A stretch of 34,379 bases of DNA from a virus (taxonomy: Duplodnaviria; Heunggongvirae; Uroviricota; Caudoviricetes). Where the stretch lies: the IMG/VR virus record IMGVR_UViG_2778261181_000004. The stretch is one strand, 5' to 3'. Positions 8,045-10,138 of the stretch are shown piece after piece. The notes under the pieces were generated by a model, which saw nothing but the letters and a program-made list of their open reading frames with translations, was not told where the DNA came from and did no database searches. The translations under genes were made by a program, and so were the position numbers. Numbering within the stretch: the stretch's first letter is position 1; the number at the start of each line of letters is the position of its first letter.

Positions 8045-8413
8045 CTACTTGGTGGTATTTGCCTTCGATGAGGCAAGATAGGCATCAAGATCACTTTTTA
8101 GGTAAATAACCTTTCTACCGATTTTTAAAAAAGGTATTCGAACTTTTCCTGTGCTAGCCCAATTAGCTAAGGTTTGCGCTTCTACGCCGATATAGGCTGC
8201 GGCGTCTTCTCTATTCATTTTTTCATGTTGTTCTGACAGAATACTCGTTGCTTCAAAATCAAAGCCCAGCCTTTCAAAGGCATAGATAATAGAGCCCAAA
8301 GCCATTTGTTTAACTGTTCTGTAGTTACTGCTTTCAACTTGGCTTAATGCAGTTTTTGCTGCTTCAATCACCACAAGCCAGGCATCTCGTTGGTTGTCGA
8401 TACTGCCATCCAT
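8045..8413 (-). CDS. DNA-binding protein with C-terminal excisionase/MerR-type helix-turn-helix; first gene left of the repressor
   Basis: ATG 8413 with GGAGA RBS; C-terminal AAAYIGVEAQTLANWASTGKVRIPFLKIGRKVIYLKSDLDAYL resembles HTH_17-type DNA-binding domains. Confidence 0.55.
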   Translation of the reverse strand: MDGSIDNQRDAWLVVIEAAKTALSQVESSNYRTVKQMALGSIIYAFERLGFDFEATSILSEQHEKMNREDAAAYIGVEAQTLANWASTGKVRIPFLKIGRKVIYLKSDLDAYLASSKANTTK

Positions 8414-8419
8414 ATTCAC

Positions 8420-8591
8420 TCTCCTGCCATGTGCGAATCATCCGGTCATTCATACGCCACCGTCGGCTACTTCGTGGGCGTCCTGCCTGTTCGTTATCTT
8501 TGATATAAAAATCTAACTTAACTTAGTTTTGATGGCAAGAGAAAACACCAAACTTTTCTTAGTTCGGTGTTTTGGTTAGAGAAAAGGGGGG
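8420..8591. promoter_or_regulatory. Left operator/promoter region (oL/pL analogue) with a hairpin just downstream of the repressor gene
   Basis: CTAACTTAACTTAG at 8493-8506 is 11/14 identical to the oR-side site; CTTAGTT copies at 8502-8508 and 8538-8544; imperfect hairpin AACACCAAAC...GTTCGGTGTT at about 8524-8552. Confidence 0.4.
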
Positions 8592-9218
8592 CTAGAGTTC
8601 GTATTGAACTCCTTTGACTACACCAATGATGAGGCAATTACCATTGATCGGGATGTTGGGGTACCGGGGATTTAATGGCACTAAAAACTTTTGAGGGCCA
8701 TCGATAACTAATTTTTTTACTGTGGCTTCGTTTGTTCCATCAAGTCTAGCGATGACTATTTTTCCATGCCGGGGTTCTGCATCAGGATCTACAATCACTG
8801 TTGCGCCTTCTGGTATTGTTGGGAGGCCGTTAGGGTTAGTCATGGAGTCGCCTTTAACCTCCAATGCAAATGAGTTATCACCAATCTTTAATGATGTATC
8901 TACCCACTTGTCTACTTCACTAAACACTTCTGCTGTCCTGCACTCAGTAAACTGCCCAGCCTGAACCCACGAGATTACAGGAACTCTGCGCATGTTTGTG
9001 ACGAGTTTGCCTTCAAACTCCGCACCATAAAGAATGTAATCTATTGACGTATTGAAGAACTTCGCTAATTTTGAAAGTGCTTCCCCACCAGGGACATTGA
9101 TGTCTTTCTCCCAGTACCCCACAGCAACGTCACTTACTCCACAAAATTTACCCAATTCTTTCTGGGACGTTCTGGTAACTCTTCTCAGAGCTTTTATACG
9201 CTGACCAACCGTTTCCAT
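8592..9218 (-). CDS. cI-like prophage repressor (N-terminal HTH plus C-terminal S24 LexA-like autopeptidase domain)
   Basis: N-terminal HTH (QKELGKFCGVSDVAVGYWEK); C-terminal domain with GDSM active-site Ser motif; divergent from a cro-like gene. Confidence 0.85.
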   Translation of the reverse strand: METVGQRIKALRRVTRTSQKELGKFCGVSDVAVGYWEKDINVPGGEALSKLAKFFNTSIDYILYGAEFEGKLVTNMRRVPVISWVQAGQFTECRTAEVFSEVDKWVDTSLKIGDNSFALEVKGDSMTNPNGLPTIPEGATVIVDPDAEPRHGKIVIARLDGTNEATVKKLVIDGPQKFLVPLNPRYPNIPINGNCLIIGVVKGVQYEL

Positions 9219-9315
9219 AGGAGCACCATTTCTTTAATTACTAAGTAATCTTAGTTTTTATTGACCTAAGATAGATTGATAATTAACATCTAATAAAACT
9301 TAGTTTGGAGGGCAT
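9219..9315. promoter_or_regulatory. Right operator/promoter region (oR / pR / pRM analogue)
   Basis: Inverted repeat ACTAAGTAATCTTAGT at 9240-9255; CTTAGTT copies at 9250-9256 and 9299-9305; candidate -35 TTGACC (9261-9266) and -10 TAACAT (9284-9289); GGAGGG RBS before the cro-like ATG. Confidence 0.5.
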
Positions 9316-9516
9316 ATGACGACTGACGATATCGAAAGCTACTTCGGCAGCATTGAGAAAGTTGCTGCTTTTTTCGGCATAACAACTGAAGCCGTTTATC
9401 AGTGGCGAAACCGTCCTGGCCAGTTAATTCCAAAAGGACGTGCAGCAGAGGCTGCATATAGAACTTGCGGACGGTTGCCATTTAAACCTGAGCTTTATGA
9501 AAAATCTAATGGATAA
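9316..9516 (+). CDS. Cro-like transcriptional regulator (YdaS-type)
   Basis: 66-aa HTH protein divergent from the repressor; GGAGGG RBS 4 nt upstream. Confidence 0.75.
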   Translation: MTTDDIESYFGSIEKVAAFFGITTEAVYQWRNRPGQLIPKGRAAEAAYRTCGRLPFKPELYEKSNG

Positions 9517-9553
9517 ATCGATTTACAGAAACCACAGATATGAGGGCTTAAAC

Positions 9554-10138
9554 GTGGGTAAAGAACCTGAATGGAAAGTTGATAAGCAACCAGCATGGCT
9601 GGTGGCAGCAATACGAAGAACGATTGCTGATTTACCTCATGGCTATGAGGAAGCAGCAGAAATTCTTGGTTTGTATAAATCTGATGATATCACCCCAGCA
9701 AAAGATCAATTGCATAACAGACTGCGTAGCGGTGGGGATCAAATTTTTCCACTTGAGTGGGCCATGGTTTTACAGGATGCCAGTGGTACCAGGCATGTAA
9801 CGGATGCAATAGCCCGTCGTAGTAATGGGGTGTTTGTGCCGCTGGTGGTCATTGATGACATTGACAATGGTGACATTAATCAGCGGCTGATGGAGTCAAT
9901 AGAATGGATTGGCAAGCATTCCCAGTACTTACGCAAGGCAACTGCTGATGGAGTTATTGACCAAGCTGAGCGTGAGCAAATCGAAGAGAACAGCTACCAA
10001 GTAATGGCGAAGTGGCAGGAGCATTTAACACTGTTATTTCGTGTTTTTTGTGCGCCGGAAAAGAGTAACGCCCGCGAGTGTGCAGCTCCGGGCGTCGTGG
10101 CGTCGATTGCTTCTGGTTGTGGAGAAACTAACGCATGA
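9554..10138 (+). CDS. CII-like regulatory protein (phage CP76 / YdaT-type family)
   Basis: Immediately downstream of the cro-like gene; preferred start GTG 9554 with GAGGG RBS 8 nt upstream (alternative ATGs at 9497 and 9509; ORF-track start 9440 overlaps cro). Confidence 0.6.

Follow-up and report, generated by a model that had tools for sequence, protein, structure and literature searches.

Among described phages, the closest counterpart of the locus considered here is the immC switch of phage P22 (c2, Cro, OR1-3 and OL1-3), and the cI switch of phage 21 is nearly the same. Six operators are recognised by the P22 c2 repressor, and their consensus, ATTTAAGATATCTTAAAT, consists of TTAAG halves around a 4-bp centre (PMC5175364); Val33 of the protein packs against thymine methyls, and Gln37 is the sole side chain that contacts bases (PMC5175364). 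Here we present a bioinformatics analysis of the immunity region in a 34,379-nucleotide (nt) stretch of tailed-phage DNA (IMG/VR virus record IMGVR_UViG_2778261181_000004), referred to at its full length as the window, with emphasis on the right and left operators (OR and OL) that flank its cI-type repressor gene and on a structured leader RNA downstream of the leftward promoter pL. Bases 8000-9600 share 99.9% identity with Escherichia virus mEp460_4F5 (LR595868.1) and with prophages of several Escherichia coli genomes, and at least 80% of the region 8420-9330 is carried by 513 of 5,426 complete E. coli genomes. Phage mEp460 is a Mexican "mEp" lambdoid phage whose lytic and lysogenic abilities were confirmed and whose operators were not described (PMC9836094); no description of them was found in the literature searched, and operator 14-15-mers match no paper.

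The heptamer CTTAGTT is present four times in the two intergenic regions flanking cI, as claimed in the original prediction, and each of these copies forms the consensus, better half of an 18-bp dyad AACTAAG-N4-CTTAGTT (Table 1). Judged from sequence comparison, the copies are very probably the better-conserved halves of five such dyad operators, which together would form the mEp460 lysis-lysogeny switch. The two OR-side copies lie at 9250-9256 and 9299-9305, exactly where they had been placed, while the OL-side positions (8502-8508 and 8538-8544) had been given 20 bases too low and are to be read as 8522-8528 and 8558-8564 on the + strand; the OL-side variant CTAACTTAACTTAG is likewise real and is found at 8513-8526, not at 8493-8506. 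The sequence ACTAAGTAATCTTAGT (9240-9255) is a perfect 6+4+6 inverted repeat with no mismatch, although the functional unit is probably the 18-bp dyad in place of the 16-bp repeat initially proposed. A third and weak OR site, OR2, located between the two OR sites of the original prediction, had been overlooked. The dyad centres are 25 and 24 bp apart in OR and 36 bp apart in OL. The candidate pR (TTGACC, 17-nt spacer, TAACAT) was recovered by a promoter scan, in which the only two promoter-like matches in 8300-9450 were pR and pL, both of them overlapped by dyads. A third promoter, pRM, is predicted on the opposite strand to pR because its TAAGAT is the same hexamer at the same position in OR3 as in P22.

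The statistical weight of these sites lies in their placement and dyad structure and not in the count of the heptamer across the window. CTTAGTT occurs five times in the window against 2.7 expected, a count reached by 10 of 100 shuffles. However, four of the five copies fall within the 269 bp of the two intergenic regions, which make up 0.8% of the window (binomial estimate ~2e-8). The core pentamer CTAAG/CTTAG occurs six times in the same 269 bp, where 0.09 would be expected from the rest of the window (P = 5e-10) and 0.57 from local base composition (P = 3e-5). When the window was scanned for AACTAAG-N4-CTTAGTT, the four best matches were exactly OL1, OL2, OR1 and OR3, and three matches reached at least 12 of 14 positions, as compared to 0.1 in shuffles.

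The pentamer is also depleted across the phage, with 17 copies observed against 41 ± 6.5 expected from dinucleotide shuffles; with six of the 17 in the two operator regions, only 11 remain for the rest of the phage. The depletion could mean that stray sites for the repressor are avoided, or it could simply follow from codon usage.

Table 1 Features of the immunity region (positions are those of the window)
Feature	Position	Strand	Sequence	Consensus matches	Remarks
OR1	9288..9305		ATCTAATAAAACTTAGTT (+ strand)	12/14	Overlap with the predicted pR start and with the end of its -10
OR2 (probable, weak)	9264..9281		ACCTAAGATAGATTGATA	9/14	One good half, ACCTAAG, overlapping the pR -35; predicted pRM -35 in its centre
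OR3	9239..9256		TACTAAGTAATCTTAGTT	13/14	Contains the perfect palindrome ACTAAG-TAAT-CTTAGT; covers the predicted pRM -10
OL1	8511..8528		ATCTAACTTAACTTAGTT		Fills the pL spacer and -10; begins 4 nt past the pL -35
OL2 (probable)	8547..8564		ACCAAACTTTTCTTAGTT	11/14	Consensus half plus degenerate half; just upstream of the pL -35
pR	9261..9289	+	TTGACC, 17-nt spacer, TAACAT		-35 at the OR2 edge, -10 abutting OR1
pL	8510..8538	-	TTGCCA (8538 to 8533), 17-nt spacer, TAGATT (8515 to 8510)
pRM (predicted)	9248..9276	-	-10 TAAGAT (9253 to 9248); -35 ATCTAT (9276 to 9271)		-10 in OR3; poor -35 in the OR2 centre
Hairpin, probable cI terminator	8542..8573	-	UUUUCUCUU (follows the hairpin)		About 20 nt after the cI stop; OL2 in its top
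Conserved structured RNA	8428..8497	-			5' end of the predicted pL transcript; begins ~8 nt past the predicted pL start
cI-type repressor gene	8592..9218	-			208 amino acids; N-terminal helix-turn-helix and C-terminal S24 self-cleaving peptidase domain
cro gene	9316..9516	+	GGAGGG (Shine-Dalgarno, 9307-9312)		66 amino acids; divergent from cI
First gene of the early-left operon	8045..8419	-			124 amino acids; C-terminal HTH_17 (excisionase/MerR-like), Pfam 3.8e-9

Systematic comparison with relatives, with one genome taken per species, was done to assess the conservation of the sites. Repressors of 63-90% identity were found in 22 prophages of Enterobacter, Kosakonia, Kluyvera, Serratia, Rahnella, Yersinia, Rouxiella, Providencia and Proteus, and their recognition helix is almost invariant in all 22 (GVSDVAVGYWEK, GVSDV(A/S/T)VGYWEK). 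In most of these relatives the five positions are again occupied by CTAAG dyads, set in otherwise divergent sequence, and the OL1 sequence is identical in most of them; Rouxiella-type loci have OR-side dyads in a different layout and no OL sites. The promoter elements are also kept: TAAGAT, the predicted pRM -10, is invariant in all relatives, pR retains GGTCAA with TAATAT at the -10 position, and the -35 position of pL reads TTGACC or TTGACA. With column identity taken as the mean pairwise identity across 11 lineages of relatives, the operator sites are the most conserved intergenic columns, the half-site columns of OR1 and OR3 averaging 0.88 (0.86 and 0.90, respectively) against 0.55 for the other intergenic columns (P = 2e-6). 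OR2 columns stand at 0.71. Intergenic columns without the pR hexamers drop to 0.48, and even the adjacent coding DNA, at 0.64, is below the half-sites of OR1 and OR3.

A weight matrix built solely from other species, whose OR1, OR3 and OL1 sites were defined by position, ranks OL1 (25.9 bits), OR1 (24.6), OR3 (23.3) and OL2 (14.6) as the top four sites of the 34 kb, the next best match in the window scoring 6.3 bits; the maxima in shuffled windows had a mean of 10.8 and a 95th percentile of 15.4. OR2 scores only 4.5 bits and is therefore regarded as weak in mEp460. Relatives carry better, symmetric dyads in its place, for example TACTAAT-CTTT-ATTAGGT.

Comparison with the immunity regions of heteroimmune phages, which had been proposed as a check of the operator reading, was found to favor it, as the layout is kept and the half-site changes together with the recognition helix. 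In the more distant relatives, three 7-N4-7 dyads again precede the repressor gene at unchanged offsets, but their half-sites are different: ATTTAAG is paired with the helix S(N/H)VAISQWE in P22 and in Photorhabdus/Xenorhabdus prophages, and ATGTAGG with NRVTVTGWE in Proteus/Morganella prophages. That helix and half-site vary together while the geometry stays constant speaks for cI as the protein that binds. Taken with the P22 geometry and register and with the conservation described above, it lends support to the earlier suggestion that the CTTAG motifs are half-sites of cI and Cro operators.

The repressor matches Pfam HTH_3 (3.5e-9) and Peptidase_S24 (1.6e-27), shares 47% identity with P22 c2 over 205 amino acids with the helix-turn-helix aligned without gaps, and has the P22 c2 N-terminal domain (2R1J, 1ADR) as the best solved relatives of its own N-terminal domain in a PDB search. 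The same search matched its C-terminal domain to lambda cI 101-229 (E = 4e-28), and its AG cleavage site, GDSM serine motif and KK motif align with the lambda cI C-terminal domain (Ser/Lys dyad). The divergent Cro belongs to Pfam P22_Cro (PF14549; 4.4e-11, 42.8 bits against a gathering cutoff of 30.2) and is 30% identical to P22 Cro; a cII/YmfL-like gene comes after cro.

In architecture the sites are identical to those of P22. Both phages have a homologous repressor with helix-turn-helix and S24 domains, a divergent cro of the P22 Cro family, and 18-bp operators made of 7-bp half-sites that end in AAG around a 4-bp uncontacted centre, the consensus being ATTTAAG-N4-CTTAAAT in P22 and AACTAAG-N4-CTTAGTT in mEp460. 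The annotated 66-bp OR of P22 can be written as 18+5+18+7+18 and that of mEp460 as 18+6+18+7+18, corresponding to centre spacings of 23/25 and 24/25 bp, respectively. The -35 of pR is situated at the OR2/OR3 junction (OR2 edge) in both, and the annotated P22 pRM ends in TAAGAT in the same OR3 register, with its -35 in the OR2 centre. On the left, the annotated P22 OL is arranged as OL3-11-OL2-17-OL1, and its 17-bp gap holds the pL -35; OL1 starts 4 nt after the pL -35 in both phages and the OL1-OL2 distance is 36 bp in mEp460 and 35 bp in P22. Repressor domains, P22-family cro, 18-bp dyads, three OR sites and OL at pL are thus all found, as in a switch of the P22 c2/phage 21 cI type.

The differences from P22 concern chiefly the specificity. 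The half-site and helix of P22/21 specificity (ATTTAAG, SNVAISQWE) are replaced in mEp460 by AACTAAG and SDVAVGYWE (S29-D-V-A-V-G-Y-W-E37), the latter through the changes N32D, I35V, S36G and Q37Y in P22 numbering, with the equivalents of Val33 and Gln21 kept. Since half-site and helix differ, mEp460 is considered to have P22 architecture with a different immunity specificity, and the two phages should be heteroimmune. In addition, no third OL site was found in mEp460, where only about 30 nt separate the cI stop from OL2; OL2 is fused to a terminator hairpin; and the cI leader is ~24 nt long, whereas the P22 pRM transcript is nearly leaderless. The distance from lambda is greater, as lambda operators are 17 bp long, their dyad axis runs through a central base pair and their sequence is unrelated, lambda Cro is of a different fold, and lambda possesses rexAB between cI and pL as well as the N/nut system. 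Overall, the comparison supports a classical P22-type lambdoid switch with a new DNA specificity.

For the working of this switch we infer protein binding, an order of occupancy, cooperativity and activation of pRM along the following lines. Dimers of the cI-type repressor would contact the two half-sites, spaced by one turn of DNA, with one helix-turn-helix each. Because the -35 of pR is in OR2 and its -10 and start are at OR1, pR would be occluded by repressor bound to these two sites, and repressor at OR2 would probably activate the weak pRM. At high repressor concentration OR3 would also be occupied, so that the pRM -10 (TAAGAT) would be covered and cI synthesis shut off. At the other end, repressor on OL1, between the -35 and -10 of pL, would block pL, and OL2, 36 bp upstream, would add affinity. 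A P22-type Cro is expected on the same sites with the opposite order of preference, and repression would be released by RecA-stimulated self-cleavage of the S24 domain.

Several points weigh against this reading. Binding, footprint or genetic data for mEp460 were not found in the literature searched; pRM was missed by the consensus promoter scan and rests on analogy with P22; OR2 is weak in mEp460 (9/14, 4.5 bits) and its conservation could be partly due to the overlapping pR -35; the conservation of OL2 in E. coli-like relatives is confounded with the terminator, because its degenerate half doubles as the 3' arm of the hairpin; and the argument from conservation is not fully independent of the window, because many relatives share the sites by descent. 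A smaller set of operators is accordingly conceivable, though rather unlikely, in which only OL1, OR1 and OR3 would be operators while 8547-8564 would be a mere part of the terminator hairpin and 9264-9281 a mere pR -35 sequence. OL2 does sit inside a stable hairpin followed by a U-run, which is maintained in relatives; its 14.6 bits are near the 95th percentile of the whole-window shuffle maxima (15.4), OR2 reaches 4.5 bits, and the conserved half of OR2 overlaps GGTCAA of the pR -35. Nevertheless, the P22 equivalents of both sites, OL2 at 35 bp from OL1 and OR2 between OR1 and OR3, are experimentally defined, symmetric OR2 sites are present in relatives, and the loop-side CTAAG of OL2 is conserved though a terminator loop does not need it. 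Relatives from Yersinia, Providencia and Proteus possess a clean OL2 dyad without any hairpin (AGCTAAG-TTTT-ATTAGAT, ATCTAAA-TCTA-CTTAGAT), which argues for OL2 being an operator and more than a terminator.

The five-dyad switch also has to be set against the idea that the dyads are bound by a regulator other than cI, be it the cII/YmfL-like protein, Cro on its own or the HTH_17 protein whose gene lies downstream of pL. Genes for three other DNA-binding proteins do adjoin the dyads, and binding by cI is a prediction; yet this assignment appears very improbable, considering that the half-site changes with the cI recognition helix across three immunity groups at constant architecture and that the dyads share the geometry seen in the solved complex of c2, the homologous P22 repressor, with its operator. 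Further, some relatives, such as LLS, keep the sites but lack the HTH_17 gene, and cII-type activators work at pRE-like promoters inside or beyond cro, not at pL. The least credible of the explanations, which can scarcely be entertained, is that the repeats arose by chance or merely accompany AT-rich promoter DNA with its UP elements and -10-like hexamers, with no specific protein recognition: the heptamer is not over-represented window-wide, both regions are AT-rich, and OL1 and OR3 each contain a -10 hexamer, but the clustering is significant even with local composition (P = 3e-5), the dyad of OR3 is perfectly symmetric, one and the same 18-mer pattern recurs at two unrelated promoters, the sites are conserved above coding DNA, and the core pentamer is depleted elsewhere (17 against 41 expected). 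Finally, the four CTTAGTT copies share one strand and might be read as direct repeats bound by a cII-like or P2 C-like protein; this was rejected, because each copy has a dyad partner 4 bp off and fully symmetric sites occur in relatives.

The probable cI terminator that embraces OL2 has a 13-bp stem with a folding energy of -15.6 kcal/mol (z = -4.2), and in 10 relatives 90% of its cells are paired, with one compensatory pair. The terminator, an operator and the pL -35 are thereby packed within ~45 bp. In several relatives one more CTAAG, isolated and unpaired in any dyad, is found 13 bp upstream of OL2, where the window has CTAAC.

Beyond the operators, the predicted pL transcript opens with a conserved structured RNA (Table 1) that makes up its first ~80 nt and is composed of two nested helices, P1 (6 bp) and P2 (5 bp), whose G·U pairs fit the strand of the pL transcript. 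Its loops comprise an internal one of 26 nt (CAGGCAGGACGCCCACGAAGUAGCCG), the invariance of which is partly forced by the search pattern, an apical one of 12 nt (GGCRUAYGAANN) and one of 4 nt (AUGA). In a gap-free alignment of 33 distinct copies, 93.9% of the cells are paired and 9 of the 11 pairs show compensatory changes (112 cells), giving a covariation score of 0.759 against 0.19 in shuffled alignments (0 of 500 reach the observed value) and at most 0.16 when the partners are slid. The existence of the structure is thus well supported by covariation, whereas folding of the single pL leader sequence was no better than that of shuffles (z = +0.67). A covariance model found a single copy in the window (79.6 bits, E = 5e-22) and no second, pR-side copy. 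An Rfam scan of 7900-9700 with E up to 1 returned no match, and the sequence was not found in any paper in a literature search.

The distribution of this RNA is far wider than that of the repressor. More than 800 further E. coli genomes that lack this cI have a match to the stretch 8434-8495 in intergenic DNA with no annotation, and so do very different phages, among them ST64B, SfII, SfV, SfIV, ZF40, YeP1-3 and pAEv1818; an exact 20-mer search placed it in at least 120 viral contigs, and 51 GenBank phages carry it. In the four annotations examined (ST64B, SfV, ZF40 and pAEv1818) a repressor gene, not always of one type, immediately precedes it, and in SfV, ZF40 and pAEv1818 it has the same placement just downstream of pL. 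Over its whole range the repressor types found ahead of it are many and unrelated. The gene upstream of it is a cI-type repressor in 92 of 108 contigs, and the first downstream gene is highly variable. The covariance model also has matches behind P22-type repressors in Xenorhabdus and Photorhabdus and none in P22, HK022 or phage LLS. In E. coli K-12, the cryptic prophage e14 carries the RNA between the repressor gene ymfK and ymfJ (72.5 bits, E = 1e-20) at NC_000913.3 1,202,108-1,202,178, where no feature is annotated.

The nearest described element is put of HK022, likewise a structured and conserved RNA, ~70 nt in length, whose first base is no more than ~10 nt from the pL start (PMC9378689). 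The two also appear to have in common host phages without a recognisable N gene (PMC9378689, PMC3851460); a search for cII, cIII and N proteins is reported in the SfIV genome paper (PMC3851460). However, put consists of two side-by-side stem-loops, while the helices of the mEp460 leader are nested around a large invariant internal loop, and putL has a pR-side twin, while the leader is a single copy. HK022 putL was rejected as a homologue, as neither BLAST similarity to the HK022 pL leader nor a covariance-model match was obtained. Our best guess, offered as a hypothesis only, is that the leader RNA controls elongation or termination of the early-left transcript in cis. More tentatively, it is possible that it represents a new cis-acting class, analogous and not homologous to put, that would act in N-independent processive antitermination or in another control of the early-left operon.

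Farther along the early-left operon, the 400-bp gap between the HTH_17 gene and the next open reading frame contains a hairpin with a T-run at ~7823-7780 on the - strand (GGTACCAG...CTGGTACC GCTCTTTTT), and CCACCTCGCCTGATGTGGCTAAAAGCAGGC (~8000-8035, - strand) in the same gap is found again in phage LLS, immediately behind pL. The hairpin may be a terminator, and the recurring stretch may be a leader signal of the early-left operon, nut-like or of another kind.

Apart from its specificity, the switch logic proposed for mEp460 is that of a textbook lambdoid phage. The operators would define the immunity specificity of mEp460-type prophages, whose repressor type is spread across Enterobacterales, and they would provide a natural specificity pair for the "valine cleft" recognition of P22 c2, with TTAAG against CTAAG and only four changes in the recognition helix. 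The leader RNA is potentially more important than the operators, being a strongly covarying motif outside Rfam that is found in K-12 itself and, at the head of the early-left operon, in temperate phages by the hundreds, and that presents itself as a direct candidate for the read-through of early terminators in lambdoid phages that lack N.

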